DNA from: a virus
Taxonomy: Duplodnaviria; Caudoviricetes
Virus record (IMG/VR): IMGVR_UViG_3300035510_000379
Span: 7,727 to 71,726 of that record
Reading direction: 5' to 3' (one strand)
Length of the DNA stretch: 64,000 nt
The position numbers and the translations under genes were made by a program. Below, one piece after another: positions 20,883 to 39,800 of the stretch. Each line of letters opens with the position of its first letter. The first letter of the stretch is position 1. A model generated the notes under the pieces. It saw only the letters and a list, made by a program, of their open reading frames with translations. It searched no databases and was not told the origin of the DNA.

Positions 20883-23800
20883 GTGGCATTATTCTTGAAA
20901 GACGAAGTAAAAGAGGAACAAAATAGAAGCCTTGCCGACAAACTAACTGATGTTTTAGGAACAGCCGCAGCGGTATCAACCACAGCGGCTTTTTTATATC
21001 GCGGGATTGGCGGCAGGAATTTAAGCAAATTATTTGATACGGGAGCGAGTTCTTTCCGTGTCATTACTGACGAAATAAGCAGCACGAGATATAAAGATTA
21101 TAGCTTAAAACGCTTAAGAGAAATGTCTGCTAAAATAAAGCAGGACATAAAAACAGAAAGAGCAAAAATAAACGCAGGCATCGCAGAACCTCGCGTTAAT
21201 GCAAAAGATTCTTTAGCTGAAAAATTAGGTCATATGTATCAGCTATTAAAAGCACCAGATGTTTTTAAACGCAGATTATACAACGACCTTTATTTAATTA
21301 CGCCTGCTTTAGAAAACTCTAAAAAATTACTTGATTCAGTTAATGCCACGCAAGCTGAAAGACGAGAACTTGAAGCTGCTATAAGACGTTTGCCGTACGT
21401 CATTAATGACAAAAAACACGCCGAAGAAAAAATACAGCAAATTAGAGATAGCATAAAAGTTAAAGATTCGCAAAGAACGGATATAATCAAGCAGGCTTTA
21501 GACTTATCTGTTAATGTAATGCGCAATCAAATGAGCGGCAAAACTACTTCTTTTAGAGCCGTCAGCGGAAAACTTGATAACGCTATCGAACAGATAAAAA
21601 GCGAATTATTTAACTTAGATACTTTATCTAAAGAGCAAAATAAAGGCAGCATAATTGATAAAGCCTTAGATGACAACCGCGCTAAAGTAAGAGATATATT
21701 AAGCAAAAAGAATAAGGATAAAGTAAGACTTGGCACTTCATCGTATCTTGACGCGCAAGGCGAACCTGTTTATTATGACAGGCGTGTTGCTCTTGAAGAA
21801 ATACAAAAATATATACTAGATAACAAACCCGAAGATTACGAAAAGTTTCTCAATCTTTCAATAGATTCTTATTTACGAAAAGACGCTAACGGTGAAATAT
21901 ATTCTTTCAGCAGAACAGCAGGCTTATTTGATAAAGCTATGCAGATTGCATCAAATACGCTGCCGGGCAAAATATTAAAACTTCAAGATATAAGGCAGAC
22001 TAAATTATCAAGTTCAGTCGTCTATGTACCAAGCGGCTCAGTAGACCCGTTGCTTTCTGGCGCAGTCGAAGGACAATTAGACAGAACAAGGCAATCATAT
22101 GTAAGAATATATAATAAGACTTTTTCTATTAATCAAGCAGGCGAATTGACGCACGAAGAACAGTTTGACAATGCTACGCTTATGTCTGGACGCTACGGCG
22201 GTTTAGGCAAACAAATTAGAAAAATGTCTGGTCTTGAAGGCGAACGACAAACTGATTCTTGGATAAGAAACTTCTTTGATATTAACAAAACAAACGAATT
22301 AAATTATTTTGAAAGAATAGGCTCTATATTTACTAAAAATAGAGATACCGACTATATTCCTAATGTTTTAAAAGCTATTAAAGAAGGTTCTCTAGACAGC
22401 ATACAATCTTTGTTTGAAATGACATCTCAGGTTGAAATGCTTATGCAGGCATCAGTAAAGCCTTTAAGTTTATCGCAGGTAAGACGATTAGCTGAACAAG
22501 AAGCCAATAATGCTGATTTAGCACTTTTAAATGCTATAAAAAGTAATGATTTAACAAGTACGGTAGAAGAATTATTAGGCTATGCTCAACATACGGATAA
22601 TGCTTTTCAGAATACTGGCTTAATAGATTTGCTTAAGAGCTATTCTAAAGATTCGGCGGCTGCGCTCCAACGAGTTACTACAAGAAGAAATACTAATCCT
22701 AATTATTATAGTACGCTAAATAATTCTATCGGTTTTGAAGAAGAATTAAAAACAGAGTTATCTAAAGAATATTTTTTAAGAAAAGTGATTCACGGCGGCG
22801 ATGTAGAATCAACCGCTTTCACTGAATTAAAGAATCTATTAGAGCAATCTGATATTGGCGATGTATACGAAGCAAAGAGAACTGGTTATGCAGCCATATT
22901 GCAATATATGTCTGGCATATCCAAAAAAGAGTATTCAACTTCGACTATCGAAAACCAAGTCCGTGAAGCCGAAGCCTTGTATATAAGGTCGATACTTCGC
23001 GGTGAAACGCAAGACGAAGGCAAACAGGATTTAAAAAAGATAATCGAGCAAACCGTATCTGATGTATACGGCAAATTCGATATGTCAGAAAAGCTTCCAG
23101 ATAACTCTTTTGCAGACGCAGCATTAAATAACTTCGTTCACGTTAAAAATATGATTACACCGCTTGACGTTATCAGAGATTTAAACGATAACGCAAGAAA
23201 CGGCAAAGAAACGGCTTTTAAATTTGTTGAGCAATTTTTTGCAGGCAGAGATAATCCTGAAGCAGTAACTTCTCTTACTTTTTATCCGTATTTTATGCTA
23301 TCGCGCCTTGGCGACGATTTAAACAATTTAGGCTTAGGCTTTAGTAACGATTCTACTAAAAACTTTTTATCTTTAGCTAAAACAATAGGCTTAAAAAGAA
23401 TACTTCCAGTAGCCGTAGGTGCAACGTATCTTGAATTTACTGATGATACAGCACAAGCATTATTCGGTACAGGTATTGCGGCAACAGCGGTAAACGGTGC
23501 AGCAAACGTTGATTTGTTCGCAAGAAAAGTAGCTGACTTTACAGGAATACAATCGTTTTTAGATAATCAGTTTGACTTAAACCCCGCACTTCAATATTGG
23601 GGCGGTAAAGACGGATTCTATACATACGATGAAGAAAAAGACTATTACGAAAACGGCTATACTCCTGTAAGAAAAGGTCGTTATTGGTGGTTTGGTTCTT
23701 CAAACGAAGTGCGCGGCGGACAAATTCAATACTGGACACCTAATCTAGTAAGGAAATTAAATTCCGATTACTATGATAAATCCATGTATGACGGCTATTT

Positions 23801-26800
23801 CGATAAATGGTCGCACAGCTTATTGCCTACGCCAATTAATCCTATATCGCCATTATTATATTTAGCTGACCCGTATTGGCTTGAAAATAAGCATTATAAC
23901 GACAGACCTTATGCTGTAAGCGGTCCGATGTTTGCAGAAGAAACTCCTTGGGGAATAGCTTTAAATAGTACGATAGGTCAAATCATTAAGCCTGTCAAAG
24001 AAATGCACAAAGACAGGCTATATGACGGCGTAGACGTTAAAGCTATGGCGTATGCGATGAATGAACGCATACGCGAAAAAGCTATTGAAAACAGCGGCGG
24101 TTATAGAGCGTCATTTGACGATGACGGCAGCATATCTTCAATAAGAAATATAGCTTATAACGCACCAGACTTAGAAACCAGACTTATTAATATATCAAGT
24201 TCTGGCGATGGTCGTACAGTTAATATAGATATTGGTGGCGATTACGGCAGCGGATACGGTCAAAGACTTATTTCTATTAATAATAGACCAGATTTCTCTA
24301 AAAACGAAGGATACTCTGGATATGGTTCACGCAATATAGGCGAAATAGGTATAGGCTATGGATATGGCGACGGCAGTGATGGCAGCGTAGGCTCTAACAT
24401 TGGTTTATCTTTAATAGCCGATGAAAACAGAAGTATAAGAGTACAGGCATCTCAAAATGCAAATAACAGCGTACAATTAAACGAAAGACTGTCATATACC
24501 AAAAGCATAGCTGCTGATAAAATAGACCAAGGCGAAGATGTAGAGAAATTAATTAATCAAGCTAGAATAACCTCTTTATCTGGTATAGCGGAAGAATCTG
24601 CTGTATCAGCACGATTAATTACAGGTATATATGGCTACGGCGCAAATAGATTTTTTGGATTCGGTGAAGAAAATACTAAGATAATAGCTAATGCCAGTGA
24701 TATGACTTCATTTTCTCGTTCATTTTGGGATATGTCTATCGGCGGCGTTGGCGGCGGCGCAATGGAAATATATCGCCGTTTTATTCCTGAATACAGACGC
24801 AATAGGCGAGTAAGCCCATTAATGAATGAAATGCCTGACTGGCTGCCATTAAGATATAGATTTGGCGACCCGTATACGGCAGTACCAGATGGCGAAGCCC
24901 GTATGCCCGGAGAAGGTTACGAATCATTAAATAATCTTCACCCAGACGCTTATGGAGCATATGGCGCATTTGACAGATATAAAATACTTGCCGATATTGC
25001 TCCTTATTCAAAAGAATTTAAAACTTGGAAAGCTATTGCTAAAGCTACTATACAAGATGAGCGTCTTGTTAAAGAAATGGACGCTATCCAAAAGCGTGCC
25101 GATGAGCAGTCTAAAACGCATGACTTTTATAATTATAGATTTCTAGGTCAAGACGTAGATTATCAAAACGCTATAATTAAAAACGTATACGCAAATGGCG
25201 CATTTACAGTATTCGGTTCTGACGAAGTATATAAATTAGCTGGCGTTGATTTTACCGATGATAATTTTGTCGCGCAGTCCAAAAATATATTAAAACAATA
25301 TATTAACTCTGGCATGAGTGTTACTTTAGCCGTTGACAGCAATCCGTATACAAGAACTTCCGATGATTATAAGAAATCAGTAAATGCGGCAGTATTTGTA
25401 GATGGCGAAAATGTATCGCAAACTTTATTAGATGAAGGTTTTGTTGAAAAACGAAAAGATAATCTAAATGCGGCTGACATTGCGGCTATGCACGGAACAT
25501 TCGGCATTATGGAAGGTACGGCATTAGAACTTCTAACTCATGTAGATTTGCCTTTAATAAGCGACAGATGGCTAAGAATTAGAAGTCCTTTAGAATCATA
25601 TAAAGCCGAGCAAATATACGGCACTCCTTATCAAACATGGTCTGATATTACAGGTACATTCGTAATGCCTGCTATTGAAAGAGCAATATCTGACGGCTCA
25701 TATTCTGCTTTAAGCACTATGAGTTTTATAGGCATGAATATGCTGCATGATAAGCAAGGCATAGGCAAAACAAGCAAAATAATGCTCAGTGCCGCTATGT
25801 CATTAACTAATAGAGGCGCATTTATAGGCGGTGCTATAAGCTATGCTATTAACGCTAACGGCAGAGGTTTTGCGACAGGTCAGAAAATAGGCGCGGCGGC
25901 TATGCTTGCAGGCAGTCTTTATTCAAGCGTGAGAGGCGATAGTCTAGCCGACAATATTATGTCTTGGGGAACAGCGGGCTTATTAGTCGGTGATTTCTTA
26001 GACGAAACAAAAGCTGCTATAAAAGATAATGATTCGCTGACTAAAAAAGCACTTAGAAGTTTTGAGAGCGTAGAGTTTAGAGGAAAAGCAGCTTTAATAG
26101 GCGTTGCAGCAGGTTTAGCTTCTTATGGATTATCAGCACTTGGCGGCGACAGAGGACCGTGGATTCCCGATAGAGTAAAAGAAAAATGGGAAACAGAAGA
26201 ATACTTCGACAGGCTCAAATACGTTAAATATATGGGTATGTATAATAAAGCTAAAGAATTAGCTAAAAGCGAAGATGATATAGATTTAGATGAAATAATT
26301 AATTATAGAAAAAGTCAGCAAGCACTTGAAAATCAGATAAGAGAAGAATCTGATGCAAATGCTCCTTGGTATTATAAATTAAAACATCAAATATCTAACG
26401 CTATCCATAAAAACGTAGATATGCCAAGCGACCATAGATTTGAATATGACGATGGATTCAGTATAGAAGATTTGCCCGGAGTTCATAACGGCGTATTCGA
26501 TTCAACGAATATAACGCCAGAAGAAAGGCTATATACTTTAAATGCTCTCGCAACGCAAGGCATTAAGCACAGCAGTAAATACTCTGAAAATGAAGAACGC
26601 GACATGACAAAAGTCAAGGATTTCTTAGATTTGCATAAAACAGAGCAATTAGACGGCTATGAAGTCCATCACGTTGTACCATTTTCAATGAACGGCAGCG
26701 ATGACCCGTCAAATATGATTATGCTATCGCATGAGGACCACGCATGGATTACGAACGAGCATAAAAAGTACTTTTACGGCGAAAATGCCAACGCAACTTT

Positions 26801-27485
26801 AAGCGAATCTGTGTTAGAGCAGGCTGATTTTTTAGACCAAAGAGGCAAAGCCGTAACAAGTTCTGCTCATGTAAGAGAAGCGTTATTATATTTACAGACG
26901 GCAGAAGAAACTATGTATAGCGTAGCTGAACGAAAAGAAAGCGACTGGATAGATATAATTAAGGCTTTGCCTGCTTATGAAAAAGATTACTATAAAGAAT
27001 TTAAAGACGAAAAAGACCCAAGCAGACGTGAAGAAATATTAAAATACGCATCGCCATTTCAGAAACGCGCATTACTTCAAACATGGAAACAATTCGATGA
27101 TACTGACGACTTAGAAAGCAACGAATCCTATTTTGGACACAATAATCTGCCTAATCCGTTTTGGGAAGGTTGGAAGAACGATGTAGATTTAAATGACGTT
27201 AAAGCTAAAATGGTTAAAAACGAAGGACAGCTATTTAGCGATTTTAATATATATGAATCAGAATACAGAAAGCCAGAAGTCATTAACGCTCCATTTTTAA
27301 AGAGAAAAGATTCGTCAAACGCTATTGCCGTAAAAGCGAGATTAGAAAGTGCTTTGAGCGGTTTAGGCTTATCTGAATCAGACGTGAGCGTACAGCCATC
27401 ATCTACAAGCGGAGTGCAGGCGGTAATAAATATAATGACAGTCAGCTCATATAATTTAAAAGAATCTATCAGAAGTTTATTTTAA
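20883..27485 (+). CDS. Giant virion/ejection protein (2200 aa) with degenerate SNase-like region, hydrophobic Gly-rich helices and HNH motif
   Basis: YKLAGVD..NVSQTLLDEG (SNase-like, ~25160-25450); several A/G-rich hydrophobic segments (~25700-26150); EVHHVVPFSMNGSDDPSNMIMLSHEDH (HNH, ~26661-26741). Start may be TTG 20895 (AGGTGG at 20881). Confidence 0.6.
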   Translation: MALFLKDEVKEEQNRSLADKLTDVLGTAAAVSTTAAFLYRGIGGRNLSKLFDTGASSFRVITDEISSTRYKDYSLKRLREMSAKIKQDIKTERAKINAGIAEPRVNAKDSLAEKLGHMYQLLKAPDVFKRRLYNDLYLITPALENSKKLLDSVNATQAERRELEAAIRRLPYVINDKKHAEEKIQQIRDSIKVKDSQRTDIIKQALDLSVNVMRNQMSGKTTSFRAVSGKLDNAIEQIKSELFNLDTLSKEQNKGSIIDKALDDNRAKVRDILSKKNKDKVRLGTSSYLDAQGEPVYYDRRVALEEIQKYILDNKPEDYEKFLNLSIDSYLRKDANGEIYSFSRTAGLFDKAMQIASNTLPGKILKLQDIRQTKLSSSVVYVPSGSVDPLLSGAVEGQLDRTRQSYVRIYNKTFSINQAGELTHEEQFDNATLMSGRYGGLGKQIRKMSGLEGERQTDSWIRNFFDINKTNELNYFERIGSIFTKNRDTDYIPNVLKAIKEGSLDSIQSLFEMTSQVEMLMQASVKPLSLSQVRRLAEQEANNADLALLNAIKSNDLTSTVEELLGYAQHTDNAFQNTGLIDLLKSYSKDSAAALQRVTTRRNTNPNYYSTLNNSIGFEEELKTELSKEYFLRKVIHGGDVESTAFTELKNLLEQSDIGDVYEAKRTGYAAILQYMSGISKKEYSTSTIENQVREAEALYIRSILRGETQDEGKQDLKKIIEQTVSDVYGKFDMSEKLPDNSFADAALNNFVHVKNMITPLDVIRDLNDNARNGKETAFKFVEQFFAGRDNPEAVTSLTFYPYFMLSRLGDDLNNLGLGFSNDSTKNFLSLAKTIGLKRILPVAVGATYLEFTDDTAQALFGTGIAATAVNGAANVDLFARKVADFTGIQSFLDNQFDLNPALQYWGGKDGFYTYDEEKDYYENGYTPVRKGRYWWFGSSNEVRGGQIQYWTPNLVRKLNSDYYDKSMYDGYFDKWSHSLLPTPINPISPLLYLADPYWLENKHYNDRPYAVSGPMFAEETPWGIALNSTIGQIIKPVKEMHKDRLYDGVDVKAMAYAMNERIREKAIENSGGYRASFDDDGSISSIRNIAYNAPDLETRLINISSSGDGRTVNIDIGGDYGSGYGQRLISINNRPDFSKNEGYSGYGSRNIGEIGIGYGYGDGSDGSVGSNIGLSLIADENRSIRVQASQNANNSVQLNERLSYTKSIAADKIDQGEDVEKLINQARITSLSGIAEESAVSARLITGIYGYGANRFFGFGEENTKIIANASDMTSFSRSFWDMSIGGVGGGAMEIYRRFIPEYRRNRRVSPLMNEMPDWLPLRYRFGDPYTAVPDGEARMPGEGYESLNNLHPDAYGAYGAFDRYKILADIAPYSKEFKTWKAIAKATIQDERLVKEMDAIQKRADEQSKTHDFYNYRFLGQDVDYQNAIIKNVYANGAFTVFGSDEVYKLAGVDFTDDNFVAQSKNILKQYINSGMSVTLAVDSNPYTRTSDDYKKSVNAAVFVDGENVSQTLLDEGFVEKRKDNLNAADIAAMHGTFGIMEGTALELLTHVDLPLISDRWLRIRSPLESYKAEQIYGTPYQTWSDITGTFVMPAIERAISDGSYSALSTMSFIGMNMLHDKQGIGKTSKIMLSAAMSLTNRGAFIGGAISYAINANGRGFATGQKIGAAAMLAGSLYSSVRGDSLADNIMSWGTAGLLVGDFLDETKAAIKDNDSLTKKALRSFESVEFRGKAALIGVAAGLASYGLSALGGDRGPWIPDRVKEKWETEEYFDRLKYVKYMGMYNKAKELAKSEDDIDLDEIINYRKSQQALENQIREESDANAPWYYKLKHQISNAIHKNVDMPSDHRFEYDDGFSIEDLPGVHNGVFDSTNITPEERLYTLNALATQGIKHSSKYSENEERDMTKVKDFLDLHKTEQLDGYEVHHVVPFSMNGSDDPSNMIMLSHEDHAWITNEHKKYFYGENANATLSESVLEQADFLDQRGKAVTSSAHVREALLYLQTAEETMYSVAERKESDWIDIIKALPAYEKDYYKEFKDEKDPSRREEILKYASPFQKRALLQTWKQFDDTDDLESNESYFGHNNLPNPFWEGWKNDVDLNDVKAKMVKNEGQLFSDFNIYESEYRKPEVINAPFLKRKDSSNAIAVKARLESALSGLGLSESDVSVQPSSTSGVQAVINIMTVSSYNLKESIRSLF

Positions 27486-27524: not shown

Positions 27525-30500
27525 ATGGACATGAACTATGTAGGAAATGTAAATAGCTCTCTTACCACATTACATAAAACTTTAAACTGGATAATGCACC
27601 AAGACAATAAAACCGATACAGAAAAGCATACAGAAGCGATGGTTGCAATAGCGCGTCCTAACTTTGCTAATCTCTCAAGATATGCAGGCATGAAAGGCGG
27701 CGTTGTCAGCAATTTTAAGAAAAATGCTTCGTATGACATTATTCCAGAGATTGAACAAAAAGAAAATGAAGTAAAAAGAGCAGTATATAATAGTTCCTCT
27801 GTTCGTACCATGTTTAATTTATTATCGAATCCAGCTAAAAATATTGCTCCTTCCGTTCAGTCGGCACAAGATTTCTTTAAAAAATATACCAGTGCCGAAT
27901 ATACCATACAGGTTGATATAAATAACAATAACGCTGTAACTACTAAAGATAAGATTATTTCTGGCATAGAAAATATAGCAAGCAAAGGCTATAAAGCTGC
28001 GTTTATGGACTTGGAAACGCTCGGCAAAGGCGATATAACTGACTTTGCTATGTCGGTATTTTCTTTAGACGAAAATGGCAAATTAGTCAAAGACGAAAAC
28101 GGCGGCAATATCAACGTTGTATTGGGCGTACAAGAACGCAATAAAGGCACTTATAGAAATATAATAGAAAAACGTTTCAGGGGCGAAAGATTAATCGGCG
28201 ATGAAAAAGTAGTATTCGACCGTTTAGCTTTAGCGTCCTCTACAAAATCAATAATTGATAAAAAAGATGGCGTATACTTTTATTCTTCATTTGCTGATAA
28301 AACGGACGCTGATGTAGTCCGCCCAGACAAACAGCGTATGATTGACGCTTTAGACGAACTCGTAAATATAAATGCAGAATATAAAAAACAATCACTAATA
28401 GACTTTAAAGGCACAAAAGTCCTTCCTATTGAAAGCAAAATATTGCAGGCATTACAGTACGTCAAAGACAATGATTTAACAATAGCCGCCCATAATGGTA
28501 TACAGTTTGACTTTCCACGTTTTGATTCATATTTTTCAAACAGCGAGAACGTAACGCATAATATGGTCGATTTAATGAAAGATTTGAACATGGCAAGTCA
28601 GCAATCATTTGATTCGCTTGCTATGCAAAACGTATTATTTCCCCGTTCGCAAATGGAAAGATATTTGATAAACCATGAAGAACTTGCTAAAAATTTAGGA
28701 GCACACGGCACTACTCTAAATACAGTAACAGGCTTAATGCTGCAATTAGATACGTTACCTCTTAACAGCAATAAAAGCATAAATGAAGAATTGCTAGAAA
28801 GAAGAAATTCTGCTGTAAATATAGCTAACCACGTTGCCGACCAAGACATTCAAGATATGGCAAGAGCCGTATTAACGCATTTAAAAGTTAATCCTAGATA
28901 CGAGAAAGCCATTGATAAAATACGCAATTCAAAAGAAAATACTACTTTAGGTATTGGTGATGTATTTGTAGTCAATAATCCTAATATGATTGATTCTTCT
29001 GGTAATGGCATGATTACATTCCAAAGGGATTTGTATTCTGGCGATTTAAGATTACAGGACGGCTTTCAGATTAAAAATATAGATAGCCAAATACCAATCG
29101 ACAAAATGGCAACTCCATCTGACGTGCAATTTAGACCATTTAGTTTTAAAAAGGATGTGGCTTATGAAATTAAAAGCATATCGAATTTTGAATTGCCAGA
29201 CAGCGCATTAGCAGAATTAAGCAGGTTAAATGAAAACCTAACGAGCGGAAAAGATTTATTTTCTATTGAATTTCAAGAAGTAAGACAAAATCCAAGCAAT
29301 ATAAACACTAGAAGTTCTTCGCCTATTTTTATGGTAGGCACAAAAGACGATATTCAGCGCAGAATGGGACGTTATTTCGATTATGCTTTTACGTTTAAAG
29401 ATGAAATAACTAAAAACGTTGAAACTGGTGAAGAAACCTCTAAGCGCATTATAACTAACACAAATAACGCATCTAAAAAACTACGAAATAATTTTCCTAT
29501 ACGCTCAAATCCAGAAGGAAATTATTCTTATGATGTTGAAGGCTTAATAAATTTATCAGAAACGGTATCTAATGAAAAATCAGCTATAAGATGGATAGGC
29601 GAACACGACAGCTTTAGCAAAGCTAAAAAAATAATGACGCTTATCGACAGCATCAATGAAGAAGTTGCGCAGAGAAAAACACTTCCAGAAGGCAACCCAT
29701 TACTTGAAAGAGCAAATATCAATAATGTTTTAGACGACTTAATAAACGTGTCAAACTCGCAAGGCTTTGCAATAGATAAGCGCGCAGTGGGATTCTTGTC
29801 TAATAATTTTAAGCCTATAACAAAACCAGACGGTACGTTAGACTATAAAGACGCACAGAATTTCTTATTTAATTTATTTAAATACAGAACCGCAAACGGC
29901 ACAACTTTAACGAGCAATACGATAGACAGCGTAGCTGAAAATGTATCGTATTATAATAAAATGGCTCACATCGTAAATCCTGTTCTTAAAAAAGCGCAAG
30001 AAATGGCTGCTAATGTCGGTGCAGAAAATAACACAAATGTCTTAAATTATTATTATAAAAATTTAATGACGCAGGTAATGAGCGCACTATCGTCAGACGA
30101 CAGAGTTATTAGAGTTAAGCAAGAACCGATTACTCAAGCACAACGCAATACGGCTTATTTTGATATGACGAATGTATATAATCGCAATCATAAATTTAAA
30201 ATACAAGCATCAAATGATATGCAGAAACGCGTGCTTGGTATAAATTTAGATACGAATAGTAATCAGTTTTTTGGTTCTGAATTAGCTGATATATATGGCT
30301 TAGATAAAGATTCCGCAAAAGATAGAGTAAAAGCTATTAAATTATTTGCTAGAGAATATTCTTTTGAATCATTAGGCGATTTAAAAACTAATGAACATCA
30401 GTCAGAGGAATATTTATCTGGTCTTATCAGACGAGAACTTTTATTTATCCGTAATGAAAAACCTAACGCATTTTTTGACTATGATTTGGCAACTCGAATG

Positions 30501-33500
30501 CAAAAAAAAGGGTACATTAAAACTCCTTGGATTGCGATAAACGGATTAAATCCTAACATAGATTCTTCTGTATCTCCAGAGCAAAAAACAGAAACAGTAA
30601 ATAAAATAATAAATACGGTCGCAGGAAACATACCTAGAGTAGATAACACGACCGCTTTCTTTAAGAAATTAAATCCTGAATCCACTCCCCAAGATTATAT
30701 TGACAATAAAGACGCGGTAGAAAATTTAGTAGACCAAGCATTAGATATTTTATCAGCCGATGGAAGAAAAGTAAGAAAACTTGGCAAAGATGCCTTAATG
30801 AATACATACGGCTATAATGAACATACAGCTAATATTATTTTGCAAAATGCAGCAACAAGAGAAAAAGATACACAAAAATTATTAACTGAATTATTTACCT
30901 CGTTAGCAGGCAACGGATTTCAGATAAGCGTTAATAATCAAGCAGGCAAAATCGGCATACTAAATTCAAAAGACGAAATATTAGATATTACAAATAACTT
31001 GCCTATTGATGTATTCAATGAAAAATTCGGCTCTTTATATACGAGAATAGGTAAGCAGACAATGGCATCGCCGTTAGCCATTTTACGAAATAAAGAAAAG
31101 CATTTAATTCTTGGCACAAATATTTTAAAAGCATTACAGAATAATAAGCATTACCTTAAAAGACAGCGCGACCTTTTAGATACTGACGATGATGCTTTTT
31201 TAGGAGCGCAGTTATTCTTTAAAAATATGCGTGAAGATATGGCTGTATATGCAACTAACAGCATGGACGCAAAAGAATCTAAGCTAACAAGAATGTTAGA
31301 TATAAGCGATTTTCTTGAAAACATCGGCGAGTACGCAATAAACAGCAGTCAAAACGGATATTTTAGAAAAGGATACGAAAACGATTATAAAGAATTTGCT
31401 GATTTATTAAATAAAGCCGCAAATGAATACCATACTGACGGAAAAGTTTCTAAAAAGACGGAAAAGACTATAACTGAATACGTTAAAATGAGTCCTCAAA
31501 TATTTATGGATTCGCTTAACATTGAAAATGAAGATATAAAAAGAGAAGAAAGACAATTTTTAGAAGAAGCGGTAAAGCGCGCAAATATGCGCACAAAGGT
31601 AGTTAAAAATCCGTATGTTTCAATATCTGACGAAATTACATCTCCATTTGCCCAGTATGGTTTAGATAAACGCGGCGTATACGGCGTAGCTGACGCAGCT
31701 TTAGAATTTGATAAAACAGCTTATGATAACGGATATGTACCAGAAGGATTAGAATTTGGTACAGGAATAAATACAGCGCAAGGATATGCTTACGAAAGCC
31801 CTAAAACGGCTAATGCTAAAACAGCAAATAGGGCAGCTAGAATTAATAGACTAAGTATGTCAACGGCTTCTTTCATAAAGATAATGTCCAGTGATGAGGG
31901 ACAGACTTATCTTCGTTCAGCGGTCAATAATGACGAAGCAGCTTTCGGCAGAATAGTAAGCCGTATCGAATCTGTATTCTTAGAAGAAAATGGCGGTATA
32001 GTATCTCCTAGATTATTGGCTCTCGCTCCAAGCAGCTCTACTAAAAAATATGATTTTGACAAATTAAATATAGATGGCAAAGTACATGGCGCAGCAGGAG
32101 AATTATATGATGATTTTTTAACAAACATCGTTAATTCAATTAGAATAAATAGGAATGCCAACAAATTAATGCTCGACACATCTAATATAAAAATACCCAA
32201 AGATGTGTACGTTAGCGAAGGGCAGCTTATTGGTACAGGTCTTAACTTTGCTATGAGCGAAGAAACTACTAAAGCAGTCCGTGAAGGTATGCTTGGTATG
32301 AAGTTTGTCGATAAAAAGACAAAAGAGGTAGTTGACAATGCCGTTATTCAAAATAGAATAACAGAAGCACTATTAGAGAAAAGCAGCAGCGAAATAAAAG
32401 ACGCTGTAACTAAATTAATAGCAGGCATAGGCGACCAAGAACATATCTTTGCTCAAGTAAATGAACAGATTAAACAGGTCATTAACGATAACTTTAGAAT
32501 ACAATTCCATTTAAAAGAAATTGACGCGCAAGGTATGCGTAAGATGGTAGAGGCTTCTGAAAAAATAGAAGCCAACGCTATATTGGGCGGCATTGGTGAT
32601 TTTGATTCTAAAATAGCAAACGTCTTTAAAAAAGGTCCGAACGCTGTTAAAGATATGCTTGGCAAACAATATACGGCAAACTTTTTATCAAGCGCAGGAG
32701 ATTTTGAAGGAGATTTCTGGACTAAGATAGAAAGCCAGACTTCCGAAAAAGATTTTGACAAATTTGTCCGCAGTATTTATAAAAACTTTGGCGGTAAGAA
32801 AAAAGGCTTAAATAATTTTGCACAAGCATTACTCAATGAACAGGAATTAGCATATAAAGCTGTAACAGGATTATTGGAAGAACAAGGCTTTATTGAAAAA
32901 GATAAGCCAGTTCATTTAATTTCTAATTTATTGCCGTACAGATTAAAGCATGGCGAAGCAAGCGGCATACTATACACCACGTTTTTAAATGCTTTAGAAA
33001 AGCATAAAGAAGATGGCGGCACTGTTAAAGGCTTTGTTAAAGAAGTGAATAATTCTGGCATATTCTCGGCAAAAGACGCACTTAAAGCACTCGATAACGG
33101 CAATATATTAATAACAGACAGCGGTGAACAAGCCAGTGTAAATATAGATAATTTAAATAAATTTATCACGAAATATGGCTTGCAAGATTTAGCTAAAGAA
33201 AAAGACGGCATTATGTACGAAAATGCTAGAACCATGGTTAGCATCGCGCATGATGAAAACAGATTAGGCGATAAATTTAAGTACACTTGGCGTTTGCATA
33301 ATAACTTAATACAGCAAAAATATAATGACGATGTATTACAAAATGTATCCGATAAATTAACTAAAGCGTTTGGCGAAGAAAAAGGTTCAGCTATATTTAG
33401 TGAACTTTATCAAGGTATTGCTTCATTTGACGACAATAATAAAATTGTTTTATCTGATGAATCAAAGCAAATGCCTATACATCAAGTATTAAGCGATTAT

Positions 33501-36500
33501 TTCCAAAATGCTATTAAGCAAGGTTCTGGCAATACCTTTATAGAATACGATACTAAAAAAGGCTATTATTTTACGAAAGATGAAGATGGAACAAGAACTA
33601 AGCATTATGGTATTGCTGATAATGGCAAAATGCTTATTGACGTCAACGGCACGGTAAGTAATGTTGCTAAAGGCAGAGCGTCATTTGCAGGTTTTAATGA
33701 AGAAAGCATAAATAATTTAGTAGACCATTTTAATGATTTAGGACAGTCCAATATATCGCTTGAATATGCTTTAGGAGTACATTCAGAAGCTACATATGAA
33801 GCTGCTAATAAATTTAATAAAATGAGTGCTAAACAGCAGGAAAAAGCCTTGGAGCGAATGGCAGGCGGCGACAATCCTTCATTCTCTCTTATAAATGTAA
33901 ATGACTTAGACGTTAAAGCAGGCTTTAATTTTGGTAACGAAAATTCTATTTTCGGCAAAGCCATGATTATAGACTTAGGCGAAAACGCGACAAGCGCATT
34001 ACAAGGTCAATACGTTAAAAACCAAGCAGAACAAGACGCAGCCAGAGAAGCCTTAATAGAAAAATACCAAGCGGCTTACGCGAATAAAGGATTAGACTTC
34101 GATATTGAAAATCCTCAAATAAAGCGTAAGATAGAAAATCAATTACCTATTATAGGCGAAAGCCCAAGACGATATATTGCTGTCGGTTTCGATGCCACTA
34201 AGTTTATGGACGATGAAGGCACTATTGAACTTAGAAAGCAAGTAGCGTCTGATATAACAGGTCTTGTAAATGCAGTATCGCGCTATAACGATGATGTAAT
34301 GGAGGCTGCGGGCGACCCTCTGTTAATGCCTAAAACTAATTATATAGCTAGGTCTTTGGATAAACTTGCATCTTCTGTCGCCGCAAGAGCGGAATCTAAA
34401 AAAGGCGTTGCGGCAGAGAATATGTCTGTATATCTTGATAATTCTGGACGCTTTAAAGGCGGCATTATTAGAACTTTAAGCGGCAGTGGTTTTGACAGCA
34501 GTGAAGGTTTATTAGGCAGAGCATTATACAGAGGACAAGATTTAACTACGCTTGCTAATAAAGGTCTTGAAGTAAATGCGGCTTTCGTTGGTGAAGATTT
34601 TGTCAATAGAGTATATGCGCAGGACGTAGAACAGTTAAATTCTATATTCGGCAAAAATACTATTTCATTAGATACCGTTAAAGACATATTAAAAACCGAA
34701 GGTACAAATGCTACCGCTTTACGTTATCCGGCAATATATACTGGCTCTATAACTCCTTCTAAATTATACTTGGGCGAAAATTTAGCAAGCAACCAAGCAC
34801 TGTTTACTGAATCAATGGCAAGAGCCATGAAACTGGATATGGACGGCGATACTAACTATATCCATGTAAATAAACAGTTAGCAGATGTTACAGCACCAAT
34901 ATACTCTAAAGATGGCTCTATATCATCATATAAAACCGTATCTATGAATCTTGATTTATTAACGGCTAGAGCGTTAGAGAATAACGGCAAAGGAATACAA
35001 GTACAATTTAGGGATAATGGAGAATTATTTAAAAGCATGGAAGCAGGCAGCCTTGCTCATGCAGAAGGCGGATTACAGCATTATGCAGGCGAAGTATCAA
35101 AACTCGTTGAAGATTTTTCGTTATCAGTACCGCAAAATTCTGGTTTAAGTCCAATAGACGTAACAGAAACTACTAAAGCAGGCATAGCTAAAACTGTATT
35201 CAATAACACTTTATCGCCGCAGGTATTCTCTAATCAATTATCTAACGAAGCTAACGGAAATATGTATGCTGCTTATATGGACGTAGCAAAAGACGCAGGC
35301 ATATATAACCCAGAGGAAGGAAACTTCTCGCAGCTTAGAAATGCCGAAGTCATTAAATCAAAAGGTCAAGACTATTTAGCTGAATTAATGCAAAATCCTA
35401 ACATAGATAACGCAACAAAAGAAAAAAATGCTATGCTGTTAGGATACGGCTATAACTTAGCTAGAAACGCCGAAGAAGTATCTGGTAAATTAGCAAAAGA
35501 TATAACTGGTTTAGTAAACTACAATACTAATATGGTTCGTGTTTTGGCTAATGACATGGCGGCATCAGGCTATGCGCCAGACTTTACCGAAAAAGATAAT
35601 ATTATCGTAAATAAAATAATGCAGGGTATAGATGAAAACTTCCAAGCTGCTAAGAATACTACTAAAGACGTTTCTAATGCTGAATTTAAAACGGCAGAAG
35701 ATAAAGTCGGTGAAGCTGTCGGCAATCTATTGTCCGTAAATTATCAAAATGCAAATAGCGAAAGCTACGATAAGCCTAATGATACAGCTACAATATGGAA
35801 AAGACAAAAAAGACGCGACAGGTTCTTTGATTATTTGTTTAATGATTTAAATATATTTGATACTAAAGAAATTAAACAAGCGAATAACCCAGTTATAAAT
35901 GAGTACATAAATGCTAAAAGCGAAGGGAATTTAGCTGCCGAAGAATTAGATAAATTAAGAGTAAACGCAGAGCAGGAAGTTAAAAATGCTTTTAATCATA
36001 TGCTCCCAATCAACTTTGATTTGTCGCCAAGCTATAAAAATTCCATAAGATATGCGTCAGCTACTCCAGAAAATGCGTCTAATGTAGAACCTATTGCCTT
36101 AGAAGAATTATCTGGCGATGGCGGCAAAACCGCCCAAGCAAGACATATTCAAGAAGTATCTGGTTATGCGGATAGAATAGGTCTCACATCAGAAGAAGCA
36201 CCTCATGCCAGAATGGCTAGAATGGGTACGCAGATCACAGGCGAAATAATAGACAGAGCGAAACAGTCTGCGGAAGAAGAAGCCGAAAAACAGCAAAGAA
36301 TATCTAAAGGCTATGAAAGAGCAGTCGAAGAAGAAGCACCTCGGCTTGAAACTTCATTTTCGCAGGATACTTTAAGGTCTGTCGGAAGTTCAGTCGAGCG
36401 AGCGGTAGAATCATTAAAAGGCGTTAAAAGCATAGGTGTAAAATTAGGATTAGGTTTAGCAGCAGGATTAATAGGCGCAGGCTTTGTTGGCGGCAATCCT

Positions 36501-36794
36501 TCTGAACCTGCTGACGGTATGGCAAGCGGAGTAAGTGCAGACCAAATCAGAAGCGGCAATTATGCTGTTCCTGATTACTCTGGCGGCATTAATCAAGGCG
36601 CACCAGCTGGCTACGTTATTCATGTAAACGGCAATTCAAGCCAAGGCAGAGATGCAGTACAGAACGCAGTAAACCAAGCCTTCTCACAAACTTTTAATAC
36701 GCCTAACGTCAACTTAACTATGAACATACAGAGCAGTTCAAGTAATATTTCCAATAGAGATATATTGCGACATATAAGCGATTTACTAAATTAA
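27525..36794 (+). CDS. Putative single-chain two-barrel RNA polymerase (virion-associated) with N-terminal DEDDh exonuclease domain, 3089 aa
   Basis: Beta'-like LDNSGR (34437), LRYP (34719) and KLDMDGDTNYIHV (34830); beta-like EENGGIVSPR, VYVSEGQLIG, GMRKM..EK and PVHLISN upstream; DLET/HNGIQFD/HVADQD exonuclease motifs; C-terminal hydrophobic segment. Confidence 0.75.
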   Translation: MDMNYVGNVNSSLTTLHKTLNWIMHQDNKTDTEKHTEAMVAIARPNFANLSRYAGMKGGVVSNFKKNASYDIIPEIEQKENEVKRAVYNSSSVRTMFNLLSNPAKNIAPSVQSAQDFFKKYTSAEYTIQVDINNNNAVTTKDKIISGIENIASKGYKAAFMDLETLGKGDITDFAMSVFSLDENGKLVKDENGGNINVVLGVQERNKGTYRNIIEKRFRGERLIGDEKVVFDRLALASSTKSIIDKKDGVYFYSSFADKTDADVVRPDKQRMIDALDELVNINAEYKKQSLIDFKGTKVLPIESKILQALQYVKDNDLTIAAHNGIQFDFPRFDSYFSNSENVTHNMVDLMKDLNMASQQSFDSLAMQNVLFPRSQMERYLINHEELAKNLGAHGTTLNTVTGLMLQLDTLPLNSNKSINEELLERRNSAVNIANHVADQDIQDMARAVLTHLKVNPRYEKAIDKIRNSKENTTLGIGDVFVVNNPNMIDSSGNGMITFQRDLYSGDLRLQDGFQIKNIDSQIPIDKMATPSDVQFRPFSFKKDVAYEIKSISNFELPDSALAELSRLNENLTSGKDLFSIEFQEVRQNPSNINTRSSSPIFMVGTKDDIQRRMGRYFDYAFTFKDEITKNVETGEETSKRIITNTNNASKKLRNNFPIRSNPEGNYSYDVEGLINLSETVSNEKSAIRWIGEHDSFSKAKKIMTLIDSINEEVAQRKTLPEGNPLLERANINNVLDDLINVSNSQGFAIDKRAVGFLSNNFKPITKPDGTLDYKDAQNFLFNLFKYRTANGTTLTSNTIDSVAENVSYYNKMAHIVNPVLKKAQEMAANVGAENNTNVLNYYYKNLMTQVMSALSSDDRVIRVKQEPITQAQRNTAYFDMTNVYNRNHKFKIQASNDMQKRVLGINLDTNSNQFFGSELADIYGLDKDSAKDRVKAIKLFAREYSFESLGDLKTNEHQSEEYLSGLIRRELLFIRNEKPNAFFDYDLATRMQKKGYIKTPWIAINGLNPNIDSSVSPEQKTETVNKIINTVAGNIPRVDNTTAFFKKLNPESTPQDYIDNKDAVENLVDQALDILSADGRKVRKLGKDALMNTYGYNEHTANIILQNAATREKDTQKLLTELFTSLAGNGFQISVNNQAGKIGILNSKDEILDITNNLPIDVFNEKFGSLYTRIGKQTMASPLAILRNKEKHLILGTNILKALQNNKHYLKRQRDLLDTDDDAFLGAQLFFKNMREDMAVYATNSMDAKESKLTRMLDISDFLENIGEYAINSSQNGYFRKGYENDYKEFADLLNKAANEYHTDGKVSKKTEKTITEYVKMSPQIFMDSLNIENEDIKREERQFLEEAVKRANMRTKVVKNPYVSISDEITSPFAQYGLDKRGVYGVADAALEFDKTAYDNGYVPEGLEFGTGINTAQGYAYESPKTANAKTANRAARINRLSMSTASFIKIMSSDEGQTYLRSAVNNDEAAFGRIVSRIESVFLEENGGIVSPRLLALAPSSSTKKYDFDKLNIDGKVHGAAGELYDDFLTNIVNSIRINRNANKLMLDTSNIKIPKDVYVSEGQLIGTGLNFAMSEETTKAVREGMLGMKFVDKKTKEVVDNAVIQNRITEALLEKSSSEIKDAVTKLIAGIGDQEHIFAQVNEQIKQVINDNFRIQFHLKEIDAQGMRKMVEASEKIEANAILGGIGDFDSKIANVFKKGPNAVKDMLGKQYTANFLSSAGDFEGDFWTKIESQTSEKDFDKFVRSIYKNFGGKKKGLNNFAQALLNEQELAYKAVTGLLEEQGFIEKDKPVHLISNLLPYRLKHGEASGILYTTFLNALEKHKEDGGTVKGFVKEVNNSGIFSAKDALKALDNGNILITDSGEQASVNIDNLNKFITKYGLQDLAKEKDGIMYENARTMVSIAHDENRLGDKFKYTWRLHNNLIQQKYNDDVLQNVSDKLTKAFGEEKGSAIFSELYQGIASFDDNNKIVLSDESKQMPIHQVLSDYFQNAIKQGSGNTFIEYDTKKGYYFTKDEDGTRTKHYGIADNGKMLIDVNGTVSNVAKGRASFAGFNEESINNLVDHFNDLGQSNISLEYALGVHSEATYEAANKFNKMSAKQQEKALERMAGGDNPSFSLINVNDLDVKAGFNFGNENSIFGKAMIIDLGENATSALQGQYVKNQAEQDAAREALIEKYQAAYANKGLDFDIENPQIKRKIENQLPIIGESPRRYIAVGFDATKFMDDEGTIELRKQVASDITGLVNAVSRYNDDVMEAAGDPLLMPKTNYIARSLDKLASSVAARAESKKGVAAENMSVYLDNSGRFKGGIIRTLSGSGFDSSEGLLGRALYRGQDLTTLANKGLEVNAAFVGEDFVNRVYAQDVEQLNSIFGKNTISLDTVKDILKTEGTNATALRYPAIYTGSITPSKLYLGENLASNQALFTESMARAMKLDMDGDTNYIHVNKQLADVTAPIYSKDGSISSYKTVSMNLDLLTARALENNGKGIQVQFRDNGELFKSMEAGSLAHAEGGLQHYAGEVSKLVEDFSLSVPQNSGLSPIDVTETTKAGIAKTVFNNTLSPQVFSNQLSNEANGNMYAAYMDVAKDAGIYNPEEGNFSQLRNAEVIKSKGQDYLAELMQNPNIDNATKEKNAMLLGYGYNLARNAEEVSGKLAKDITGLVNYNTNMVRVLANDMAASGYAPDFTEKDNIIVNKIMQGIDENFQAAKNTTKDVSNAEFKTAEDKVGEAVGNLLSVNYQNANSESYDKPNDTATIWKRQKRRDRFFDYLFNDLNIFDTKEIKQANNPVINEYINAKSEGNLAAEELDKLRVNAEQEVKNAFNHMLPINFDLSPSYKNSIRYASATPENASNVEPIALEELSGDGGKTAQARHIQEVSGYADRIGLTSEEAPHARMARMGTQITGEIIDRAKQSAEEEAEKQQRISKGYERAVEEEAPRLETSFSQDTLRSVGSSVERAVESLKGVKSIGVKLGLGLAAGLIGAGFVGGNPSEPADGMASGVSADQIRSGNYAVPDYSGGINQGAPAGYVIHVNGNSSQGRDAVQNAVNQAFSQTFNTPNVNLTMNIQSSSSNISNRDILRHISDLLN

Positions 36795-36885: not shown

Positions 36886-39800
36886 ATGAGCGAAGTTGTA
36901 AATTCTACAAGCGTCCTGCCAGATATGAGCGATTTTTATTATGACGCACAGGACGGCTATCAATTCGTTAAAACAGATAAAATATTTAAGACAACCGATA
37001 TAGCAAGTGCCGCAGACGGCAAATTTTATACGGAAGAACCGCCAGACTTAGGCTATAATTCTCAATATAAAGTCGTATGTGTTCAATATTATAAAAGTAA
37101 TGACGGAATAGGCTCTTATGACGAACAGTTTATTGACGGCATGAAAGTAGTCGATGGCGACACTATTTATTTTAATGTCGATAATTTTAAATATGGCGAT
37201 GATGAATCTAAAAAATATATAGAAGAAATAACACAGGCTAATTTAAAAACGGCAAATGACGCATTAGGGAGTAATCCAGATTGCCATGCAGGCGTACTCA
37301 TAACACGCTTGGCTTTTATAAATGCCGCCGAATTGCCGCATTTTGATGCTGTCGGCACAAGAGATAGTTTTAGCAGCGATATAGATATTAAAACATTAAG
37401 CTATTCAGACGTAGCTAAAAGCGGCGATTATATCTATTCTAACTATAAATCATTTATGAGCACTGATAGTTCAGCTAAAATACCTACGAATTTTACTGAC
37501 AAAAGCAGTATGAATAGTTATGACACTAAATATAAAGATACCGATACGCTTTCTTTCGTGAATGTAGGCAACAAAAAACTTCGCCAGTGCTTTACGAAAA
37601 ACGGCAATTTATATCTTTTAACTACGCAGGACGAATCACAGCCTGCAACTATTGCTGACGCAGGATTAGCCCGTGATTTAGTAGTCAGTGCATTACATCA
37701 AGCTACTGAAATAAGAATAGCGATTAACCTTTCTACTTTAGCAAAGTCTGCTGACATGGCAGAAAAAGTAGCTGAATATAAAGACAGTGATAATATCTTA
37801 ACAGCTATTACAAAATTGTATAAAGGCTTTAATGGCGATTTGCCGCGCTTTTTAAGCGTAGGTTTTAATGCTTTAGGCTTAGATGCGTATGGTCGTGCAG
37901 TGTGTGTAGTATATTGCAAAGTGGGCGGCATATGGATTAATATCAATAAATTGGTTATATGCAAAACACCTAAATCAACGCAAAATACCGATTTTACCAT
38001 GAGCGATATGTTTGACCCGTCAAGCTATCAATATGCTGACAAAGTATATGCAGATAACGTATATTCAGCAACAGCAAAAAATGACGACAGGTTAGTAGTT
38101 CATGGTAAAATATCTAAATTAGCCTCTATTGAAGCCATGACTAATTGGAGCGTATTGCTAGGCGATATTTTATTATTAGTTCCTCCAACGAGCATTAATA
38201 AAGTAAACATGACTAAATCGGAATACTTGCAGCCAATGCGCGCGAGAGGAAAGATGTTTAAAAACTCATGCAAGACGCAGGAATTAATCGAAATGGAATT
38301 ATATTTCTGCGGCGATACTGGGATTAACGGCACTCCATATGAAGTTACTCTAAACGGCAAAAAACTGACTTATTATTTAGACGGCTTGCGCAGTCTAATA
38401 GCACAATTTAAAGTATGCCCATTTTTGCCTATCCAAAATGAATTTATAAATGACGTTTTGCATATACAGGCTGTTACCTTATCTTCGATAAATATAAGCA
38501 CAGTGCCTATGTACCCAAAGCTGTTAAAAGTAAATCTGCAATTATCTGACTTTGATTATAGAGTATATATGCCTGAAATTCCTTTAGAAGAAGATGGATT
38601 AAGCGACAAGAATTATTTTGCTGAACAAATATATTATCCTTTAATGCGTTATTATTATCAGCGTATGATAATGGACGGAGAACGCATTAAAGATTTAGAA
38701 TTTAATTCTAAGGAATATATAAATAAGGCATCTGAAACGCATGATTATTACGTTAAAACGTGCTTAGAGCCAATGAAGTTTAAAGATTCGACAGTGCGTT
38801 TTTACGTTCCAAATAAAGAAGCACTGGACATTAAAAAGCAAAAAAAAGTTCAGCAGTTGCAAGACAGTACCACTATGACCTTCGACAATACGGACAAAGA
38901 GTTAGTCGGAGAATTTAATAAAATAACGACAGCTTTAGATTCGTTTAAAAATAGCGATGAATGTAAAGCACTCGACACTTATAACAAAGATTCCAACACA
39001 GATTATGAATTTTACACAGGCGGAACACCAGTTTTGGATTATTTAGACGAAGCAATTTCATATGCTTCAGGTGGTTGTTATTTGTATATTGTAAACAGAG
39101 AAAGCAAGCAAATTGTTGCAGTTAATTGTGATAACAGAATTGACGCCGCTGTTGAAAAAGTTAAAAGCGAAATGCAAAATGCGACAACAAAAAGCGGTTC
39201 ACCGTTATGCGAATGTATAGGCACAACTCCGCTAACGTCAGTAATATCGTCTGATGGATCGTATGTTACGGTAGGTCGTACAGTAATGTTTAAGATAAAC
39301 ATAGATACTGTCGGAAAAGAAACTTCATATAAAAAATTAAAAGATACAGCAGCAACAAGCAATAGCGGAACTATAACGGCAGACGAAATTTTTAAAGACA
39401 ATAAAATATCTTATCGAATTTATATAACATTATACAGGAACGGCGACTATGGTTTAGGGCTGGCAGTCTACGCTTTGCAGTGCGGTACGGATAATGCTTG
39501 GAGTTATGAGGTTGAAACGGAATCGACAAAAAACTTTTTGCAATATTGCTCCGCTTTAGGCAATAAAAGCGAATTAAATCAAGACTTAACAAATAAAAAT
39601 GTATCGGCTACTGTCGACTGGGAAACAAATGACGGTATAGAATACGATTTATATAATGACGGCTCAAACTTAGTAGTTACTAACTGTACTATGAGTATGT
39701 CTAATACTTTTACGAATATTACCTTACAATCGACAAATGGTATTGCTCCTCAATTTATGGGCGGTTCAGAAGTAGCTATTAATATGACAATAACTACATG

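Follow-up and report, generated by a model that had tools for sequence, protein, structure and literature searches.

We analysed a 64,000-nucleotide window (positions 7727-71726 of the 71.7-kb IMG/VR record IMGVR_UViG_3300035510_000379) and found that one of its giant genes encodes, with high confidence, a DEDDh (DnaQ-like) 3'-5' exonuclease domain on the same chain as a predicted two-barrel RNA polymerase (RNAP). The corresponding protein, hereafter P0001, has 3,089 amino acids (aa) and is encoded at 27525..36794 on the plus strand, which carries all the P0001 features described below. Its gene is the middle one of three giant genes and lies between tail chaperone-like genes and the baseplate hub gene. 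P0001 can be viewed as the tape-measure-slot protein of a jumbo phage with a contractile tail, from the lineage of Bacillus phage 0305phi8-36; this protein would combine an N-terminal exonuclease (residues ~140-470; 27942..28934), an RNAP (residues ~1910-2520) and a C-terminal hydrophobic helix followed by a conserved module. A previous reading of the DNA letters (the sequence-only reading) had proposed, from three motifs, a DEDDh domain fused to the N-terminus of a putative RNAP. The conservation of the catalytic residues, the predicted fold and the presence of both domains in homologous proteins agree with this proposal.

The motifs of the DEDDh family are located as follows. ExoI is D162-L-E164-T165 (28008..28019) and belongs to the stretch FMDLET that starts at residue 160 (nucleotide 28002), the codons of D162 and E164 being at 28008 and 28014, respectively. 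ExoII is H323-N-G-I-Q-F-D329 (28491..28511), within IAAHNGIQFD (residues 320-329; 28482-28511). ExoIII is H436-V-A-D-Q-D441 (28830..28847), within NHVADQD (residues 435-441; 28827-28847), and has the H-x4-D form, with the histidine, instead of a tyrosine, that defines the 'h' type. An additional aspartate, D363 (28611..28613), located between ExoII and ExoIII, belongs to a motif of the D-[ST]-L type. The codons assigned to these motifs by the sequence-only reading were right, with the precision that 28491 is the codon of His323 and not the start of the isoleucine, and that 28830 is the codon of H436.

When 1.84 billion representative proteins were searched exhaustively with HMMER, 13 relatives were retrieved, all from metagenome assemblies (contigs up to 210 kb) and with uninformative names; together with P0001, they gave an alignment of 14 rows. 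Eleven of these relatives have lengths of 2,600-3,300 aa, their matching region being located N-terminally as in P0001; a 403-aa fragment ends before ExoIII. Although their overall identity to P0001 is only 17-33%, D162, E164 and D329 are invariant in the 14 rows, and H436 and D441 in the 13 rows that reach them, as is D363 (13 of 13). T165, N324 and F328 are each conserved in 13 of 14 rows and A438 in 11 of 13. All the catalytic residues claimed by the sequence-only reading are thus present, the five of them being invariant in the complete homologues, which comprise 12 metagenomic clusters (~2,600-3,300 aa) and the proteins of two cultured Bacillus phages. Furthermore, when the ten more distant full-length relatives are considered, no other segment exceeds the exonuclease domain in conservation, and this domain usually ranks first (identity of 20-28% versus 15-23% for the other segments), a pattern that, at the level of sequence, points to functional selection. 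Shuffling the N-terminal 700 residues 20,000 times, or the whole protein 3,000 times, never produced the ordered pattern D.E[TS] ... [HY]N...FD ... H.A..D with realistic spacing. A chance motif match was rejected on account of these shuffles and of the conservation of the motifs.

The N-terminal part of P0001 was modelled with AlphaFold on the 14-sequence family alignment. Residues 140-470 mostly have a predicted local confidence (pLDDT) of 70-95, the means of 10-residue blocks being 79-97 for residues 141-370 and 58-90 for residues 371-460. An exhaustive structural search of 48,161 PDB chains with VIA-align gave as best match the epsilon subunit of Escherichia coli DNA polymerase III (1j53_A), with a Z-score of 12.3, a root-mean-square deviation of 2.8 Å and 22% identity over 163 of its 174 residues. 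The aligned ranges (157-454 of the model on 7-180 of epsilon) imply that D162 and E164 fall on D12 and E14 of epsilon, and H436 and D441 on H162 and D167. Nearly all the top 50 matches are DEDD exonucleases or catalytically dead relatives, epsilon being followed by TREX1, Cap18, ERI2, the exonuclease domain of DinG, 3'hExo, RNase T and ExoI. In addition, a Foldseek search of the PDB with the 700-residue model gave weak E-values (0.02-0.1), RNase T (probability 0.93), PARN, ExoI and TREX2 being prominent among the top matches. The predicted fold is therefore of the DEDD (RNase H-like) type, as the sequence-only reading had supposed. In the BFVD database, A0A8S5RKK9 and A0A7R7G2L5_1 match the N-terminal model, with E-values of 1e-10 and 1e-9, respectively. 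One of these two proteins ('virus sp. ctEQ64') bears the automatic name 'YprB ribonuclease H-like domain-containing protein (Fragment)', so that at least one relative has had its fold recognised by automatic annotation.

The domain has about 330 residues versus about 175 for epsilon. Between ExoI and ExoII, it harbors a lineage-specific insertion of ~100 residues (residues ~200-300; 28122..28424), made of helices and a beta-hairpin that are modelled with a pLDDT of 82-97, and ~45 further residues precede ExoIII. The spacing between D162 and D329 amounts to 167 residues, whereas the alignment of the entire domain to the 174-residue epsilon domain comprises no more than 163. The insertion contains consensus blocks conserved in the family, for instance RLALxG and DGxxRYxxFA, and the hidden Markov model (HMM) of the domain also aligns these blocks in proteins from the phages WH1, KLEB27-3, MTATph1 and 0305phi8-36 (gp146), described below. 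This insertion might bind a substrate or a partner. The exonuclease is followed by a beta-rich region (28965-29400, residues ~480-620) with a pLDDT of 45-70.

Searches in profile libraries gave a different picture. Neither P0001 nor any of its 13 relatives matches the Pfam family RNase_T (PF00929) at an E-value of 0.01 or less, and no family member reaches any Pfam threshold. The only Pfam match of the domain is to RNase_H_2 (PF13482; residues 302-368), with an E-value of 0.016 and 15.6 bits for a cut-off of 22. PHROGs and NCBIfam, searched with the domain, the whole protein and the family members, gave no significant match to the exonuclease domain. Likewise, nothing significant was found by phmmer searches of PDB sequences with the domain and the whole protein, by a word-indexed protein search with residues 100-520, or by scans of viral contigs with the exonuclease domain and with a relative of P0001 (P0002). 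ESM Atlas gave only weak leads, below 0.9. Compared with the PDB, the family profile (2,833 positions) gave a marginal match (E-value of 0.9) to a TREX1 homologue (9mrc_A), in which D363 aligns to the DTL motif. Thus, the affiliation to RNase T/DnaQ families suggested by the sequence-only reading fails when Pfam RNase_T is used and holds when motifs and fold are considered. Both of the latter point to a divergent DEDDh subfamily lying outside the present Pfam model. The domain is probably catalytically active. DEDDh enzymes remove the 3'-terminal nucleotide by two-metal hydrolysis; in P0001, D162, E164, D329 and D441 would hold the metals and H436 would act as the general base in an attack starting from a free 3'-OH.

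The sequence-only reading had also placed the exonuclease on the same chain as a two-barrel polymerase, and structural matches to the RNAP beta-prime subunit as well as conserved D-x-D-x-D, R-x-P and K-x3-R motifs bear out the presence of a polymerase on this chain. The model of the polymerase region (residues 1560-2750) has a mean pLDDT of 62, with a core at 70-88; the models of both regions were built from 12-14 sequences. The beta-prime-like catalytic barrel, which is well supported by this model, spans residues ~2304-2515 (34434..35069). It includes R2400-x-P2402, located 38 residues upstream of the motif D2438-M-D-G-D2442 (34836-34850). A candidate beta-like double-psi beta-barrel, moderately supported, spans residues ~1913-2029 (33261..33611) and includes K1919-x3-R1923. 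D2438, D2440, D2442, P2402 and R1923 are invariant in the family alignment; R2400 and K1919 are nearly so, K1919 being replaced by an arginine in one row. Foldseek gave 319 PDB matches with an E-value of 1e-3 or less, the top ones being all RNAP beta-prime subunits (E-value of 7.6e-7, probability of 1.0), and VIA-align gave Z-scores of up to 9.7 to beta-prime, Rpb1 and A190. Among single-chain RNAPs, QDE-1 (Z 7.8), P74-26 gp62 (Z 7.5) and P23-45 gp96 (Z 6.1) align from residue ~1910 to residue ~2515; these alignments start at the strand that carries K1919-x3-R1923, and their Z-scores are in the middling range of the tool.

Downstream of the polymerase, the only membrane-like stretch of P0001 detected by a hydropathy scan is a Gly/Ala-rich hydrophobic helix (residues ~2969-2990; 36429..36494). 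This helix is kept in the family and in 0305phi8-36 gp146, WH1 gp095 and KLEB27-3 gp034. It is followed by a conserved C-terminal module (PAGY-V-x-V-x-G ... NQ ...; 36495..36791), which by eye is common to the C-terminus of gp146. When orf146 was compared with its BtI1 counterpart, conservation was limited to the last 60 residues (Hardies 2007).

All complete family members, as well as proteins from two cultured Bacillus jumbo phages, vB_BceM_WH1 and vB_BauM_KLEB27-3 (WH1 and KLEB27-3), have both domains in the same order, so that homologous RNAPs do share the exonuclease. WH1 gp095 (L004:11306-18853) and KLEB27-3 gp034 (L005:11505-18809) are located in the tape-measure slot, and each carries an N-terminal DEDDh domain and a barrel with a D-H-D-G-D or D-Y-D-G-D motif, respectively. 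The domain HMM matches their N-termini with E-values of 1e-8 (gp095) and 2e-9 (gp034), and all the DEDDh residues are found there, ExoI being D-I-E in WH1 and D-T-E in KLEB27-3. The full-length family HMM matches their exonuclease and D-[HY]-D-G-D regions colinearly, and the latter region also shows weak matches to Pfam RNA_pol_Rpb1_2. These two proteins resemble P0001 by their gene slot, their domain order and their C-terminal hydrophobic helix; they are very distant from it, and differ in being ~600 residues shorter and in the fourth position of ExoI and the alanine of ExoIII, which vary. tblastn searches of GenBank phages with the N-terminal 525 residues of P0001, and with the part extending from the polymerase to the C-terminus, retrieved nothing. 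Judging from these profile matches, the exonuclease-polymerase architecture is already in GenBank, unannotated in Bacillus phage records and labelled only as a (virion) structural protein. A literature search for WH1 and KLEB27-3 returned no paper in the library consulted.

Two more distant counterparts carry the exonuclease in another arrangement. In phage MTATph1, CDS0027 (L003:12000-15929) has a DEDDh domain near its C-terminus (residues ~844-1065) that matches Pfam RNase_T with 28.4 bits for a cut-off of 24. In 0305phi8-36, gp146 (L002:11567-19180) shows colinear ExoI, ExoII, DTL and ExoIII motifs and the insertion blocks in the middle of the chain (residues ~1217-1700). The domain HMM matches it with an E-value of 3e-4 in a seven-sequence database and with long insertions, and gp146 thus probably carries the exonuclease domain. 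Like P0001, both proteins occupy the slot that follows the chaperonins or gp145 and precedes the hub, and gp146 shares the C-terminal module; unlike P0001, they have the exonuclease in the middle of the chain or near the C-terminus, and no D-x-D-x-D motif was found in either of them. A search made with the polymerase region gave nothing significant in the records of 0305phi8-36 and MTATph1. The exonuclease module therefore seems, from these comparisons, to be more widespread in the tape-measure slot than the polymerase. In GenBank, gp146 is called a hypothetical tape measure and is marked as present in the virion on the basis of mass spectrometry, and its assignment as tape measure rests on tail length (PMC2147016).

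Gene order supports the equivalence of these genes. According to the annotations of four of the five genomes with a related hub (all except that of phage Edson, hence 0305phi8-36, MTATph1, WH1 and KLEB27-3), the common order is sheath, tube, chaperonins, giant 1, giant 2 and hub, which in 0305phi8-36 corresponds to sheath, tube, gp143/144, gp145, gp146 and gp147. The P0001 gene lies between the tail chaperone genes and the hub, a slot shared by two giant genes. Because of this synteny and of the common C-terminal module, the P0001 gene is assigned to the slot of gp146. In MTATph1, a transposase gene and three short open reading frames (CDS0028-0031, L003:16026-19356) lie between the 1,309-aa CDS0027 and the hub; the slot-2 giant gene of this phage may have been split by an insertion element.

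The record has a CheckV completeness of 31% and is a fragment of a genome of ~200 kb or larger. The window encodes a portal protein, a major head protein and a tail sheath (11109-14192), and the three giant genes (2,200, 3,089 and 2,725 codons) lie downstream of tube and chaperone-sized genes. The three giant open reading frames had suggested a crAss-like phage, an origin that is excluded by the tail sheath and by the synteny with 0305phi8-36-type myophages. The upstream giant gene (20883..27485, plus strand; 2,200 aa) is by synteny the positional counterpart of 0305phi8-36 gp145. Its product includes an HNH-like stretch (26650-26830, residues ~1922-1980); residues 1923-1953 match Pfam HNH below threshold (E-value of 0.0024) and a PHROG of homing endonucleases with an E-value of 2.4e-7. 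The downstream giant gene (36886..45063, plus strand; 2,725 aa) encodes a baseplate hub and cell-wall hydrolase that matches phrog_20474 (E-value of 5e-185). tblastn matches of this hub were obtained with 0305phi8-36 ORF147, MTATph1 CDS0032, WH1 gp094 and KLEB27-3 gp035, and the Edson hub is also related. The matches of the hub to phrog_20474 and to 0305phi8-36-type hubs span only ~40% of its length. A staphylococcal-nuclease domain was sought in its N-terminal 330-400 residues, with no Pfam match at an E-value of 1 or less.

P0001 can be compared with several known systems. Like DEDDh enzymes such as epsilon (PDB 1J53), TREX1, RNase T, 3'hExo, Cap18 and DinG, it has D-x-E, N-x3-F-D and H-x4-D in the same order; unlike them, it has the ~100-residue insertion and the extra residues before ExoIII, and its domain is embedded in a giant tail-module chain instead of belonging to a replisome or to a free enzyme. 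Fusions of DEDDh domains to other machines are familiar, PolC and DinG being examples. Concerning the polymerase, the closest parallel is gp96 of Thermus phage P23-45 (PDB 8H2M), a giant protein of the tape-measure slot with a single-chain two-barrel RNAP, a D-b-D-G-D metal site and a membrane-type segment elsewhere in the chain. According to the proposal made for gp96, this protein is ejected and transcribes the earliest phage genes (PMC10770324), a role also envisaged for P0001. This tape-measure-fused virion RNAP belongs to a long-tailed non-contractile phage and has its polymerase at the N-terminus; no nuclease domain is reported for it in the paper, from which the words 'exonuclease' and 'nuclease' are absent (PMC10770324). 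By contrast, P0001 comes from a phage with a tail sheath, has its polymerase two-thirds along the chain and begins with a DEDDh exonuclease; the two proteins share a structural match (Z 6.1) without sequence similarity.

Other single-chain two-barrel RNAPs, namely gp66 of the crAss-like phage phi14:2 and QDE-1 of Neurospora, are also comparable, QDE-1 aligning over both candidate barrels (Z 7.8). In the virion, gp66 is contained within a far larger protein. Neither has a fused exonuclease. The phage of gp66 is short-tailed; it stores this protein in its capsid and does not encode it in a tape-measure slot. Finally, an exonuclease is physically coupled to a polymerase in coronavirus nsp14 ExoN, a DEDDh enzyme (fold match with Z 7.6), and in DP1 of the archaeal PolD. 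However, nsp14 serves an unrelated palm-type RNA-dependent RNA polymerase, and DP1 is a Mre11-type phosphoesterase and not a DEDD enzyme, although PolD is itself a two-barrel polymerase (PMC4996933).

Our preferred reading, which we hold tentatively and put slightly short of an even chance when taken as a whole, is that an active exonuclease is delivered through the tail together with the RNAP and acts on DNA 3' ends. Since gp146 is annotated as a virion protein and a hypothetical tape measure, and since P23-45 provides a precedent (PMC10770324), the tail probably carries P0001 and, by analogy with these proteins, ejects it into the host before the DNA enters. Besides, the C-terminus of a tape-measure protein is at the tail tip and its N-terminus is directed toward the head and the DNA end. 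With this topology, the C-terminus of P0001 would lie in the envelope and the N-terminal exonuclease would be nearest to the leading end of the incoming genome. Its most likely action would be to resect one strand at this end. Single-stranded DNA would thereby be exposed, either as a template that the co-delivered polymerase could use or as terminal repeats able to anneal.

That the exonuclease acts on DNA 3' ends at the entry site is, considered for itself, plausible while somewhat short of probable. This role is preferred for three reasons. First, the exonuclease is kept in at least one slot-equivalent protein devoid of the polymerase. Second, the highest identities among the structural matches are with DNA-acting exonucleases (20-22% for epsilon, 17% for DinG-exo and 17% for ExoX). 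Third, gp66 and QDE-1 prefer single-stranded DNA, which 3'-5' resection would supply; in vitro, both transcribe it far better than duplex DNA (bioRxiv 10.1101/2020.03.07.982082).

Several points weigh against this reading. Pfam, PHROGs and NCBIfam miss the domain, whose membership comes from motifs and from a structure predicted with 14 sequences. RNA-acting DEDDh enzymes (3'hExo, RNase T and ERI2) are within ~1-2 Z units of the DNA-acting ones, and the fold thus leaves the substrate unfixed, since RNA and DNA enzymes score alike. The case for an exonuclease in gp146 is weak, given the size of the database behind its E-value and the long insertions in the alignment. Furthermore, 0305phi8-36 has a separate YonO-like RNAP gene (PMC7824862), with which an exonuclease could cooperate in trans. 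The location of P0001 in the virion is deduced by analogy, from the annotations of its homologues, and the passage of folded domains of 35 kDa and ~70 kDa through the tail tube is questionable.

Alternatively, the domain could be a counter-defence or host shut-off nuclease that, once ejected, would degrade host nucleic acid, small nucleotide signals of host immunity or host DNA ends independently of the polymerase. We consider this unlikely, although the presence of the exonuclease in slot-equivalent proteins without a polymerase motif is in its favor, and although the HNH-like stretch of the upstream giant protein hints at a payload of several nucleases. The domain also matches Cap18 (Z 11.2), which is associated with the cyclic-oligonucleotide-based antiphage signaling system (CBASS), as well as the dinucleotide-degrading REXO2 (Z 9.0), a Rhodococcus diDNase (Z 7.2) and DexA of phage T4 (Z 9.6); however, these likenesses are of fold only, a match to PADLOC or other defence families having been neither sought nor found. 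Moreover, tape-measure proteins are present in very low copy number, and such a tethered enzyme would be ill suited to degrading the host genome or diffusible signals in bulk. The absence of Pfam matches at an E-value of 1 or less for the staphylococcal-nuclease domains that had been proposed in neighboring genes also speaks against this alternative.

An even more doubtful alternative is that the exonuclease edits RNA 3' ends for the fused polymerase, in cis, by trimming or proofreading nascent or backtracked RNA or by removing abortive products or primers, in the manner of nsp14 ExoN with the coronavirus replicase. The occurrence of both domains on one chain and in the same order, in every complete family member as well as in WH1 and KLEB27-3, fits with such a role, and DEDDh RNases (3'hExo, Z 11.1; RNase T, Z 10.6; ERI2, Z 11.2) match the domain approximately as well as DNA enzymes do. 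However, about 1,450 residues separate the two domains, and the active site of two-barrel RNAPs itself cleaves backtracked RNA; we know of no precedent for a separate proofreader serving them. Obligatory RNA proofreading is also less favored because the counterpart from the Moorella phage MTATph1, and probably gp146, has the exonuclease without a polymerase motif. A predicted complex between the exonuclease domain and the polymerase core scored 0.00 for a mark of 0.32, a result that was counted neither way. Lastly, a catalytically dead or structural remnant (a nucleic-acid-binding or assembly module) or a fortuitous motif match is very improbable: profile libraries do miss the domain and the inactive DEDD folds of ESRP1, Maelstrom and Exuperantia are among its structural matches, but dead domains normally lose their catalytic residues, and this explanation was set aside because the five residues are invariant at 17-33% identity and are also kept in WH1 and KLEB27-3, the ordered motifs being absent from all 20,000 shuffles and the fold match covering 163 of the 174 epsilon residues.

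The sequence-only reading knew of no such fusion in characterised phage RNAPs, in agreement with our literature searches on tape measure, virion RNAP, two-barrel, exonuclease and DEDDh, in which no description of an exonuclease-RNAP fusion was found. Virion-delivered RNAPs have been studied in few phage groups only, namely N4-like phages, crAss-like phages and P23-45. Our analysis indicates that large contractile-tailed relatives of 0305phi8-36 place a predicted RNAP in the tape-measure slot, paired with a strictly conserved DnaQ-type exonuclease that profile libraries miss. Since WH1 and KLEB27-3 are cultured and have the same architecture, they would provide ready bench models for this family. 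There is a modest chance that the exonuclease and the two-barrel polymerase form one injected machine, working either by 3'-strand resection that provides a single-stranded DNA template or by RNA 3'-end editing. In both cases, transcription would be started in a new manner while the DNA is being injected, by a mechanism that would be widespread among jumbo phages with contractile tails; if RNA editing is involved, this would be the first two-barrel RNAP with a dedicated proofreading nuclease. If the exonuclease prepares DNA ends or protects against host defence, it would help to explain how early genes are expressed without the host polymerase. In that case, the exonuclease of P0001 would also be a new activity among the proteins that phages inject into their hosts.

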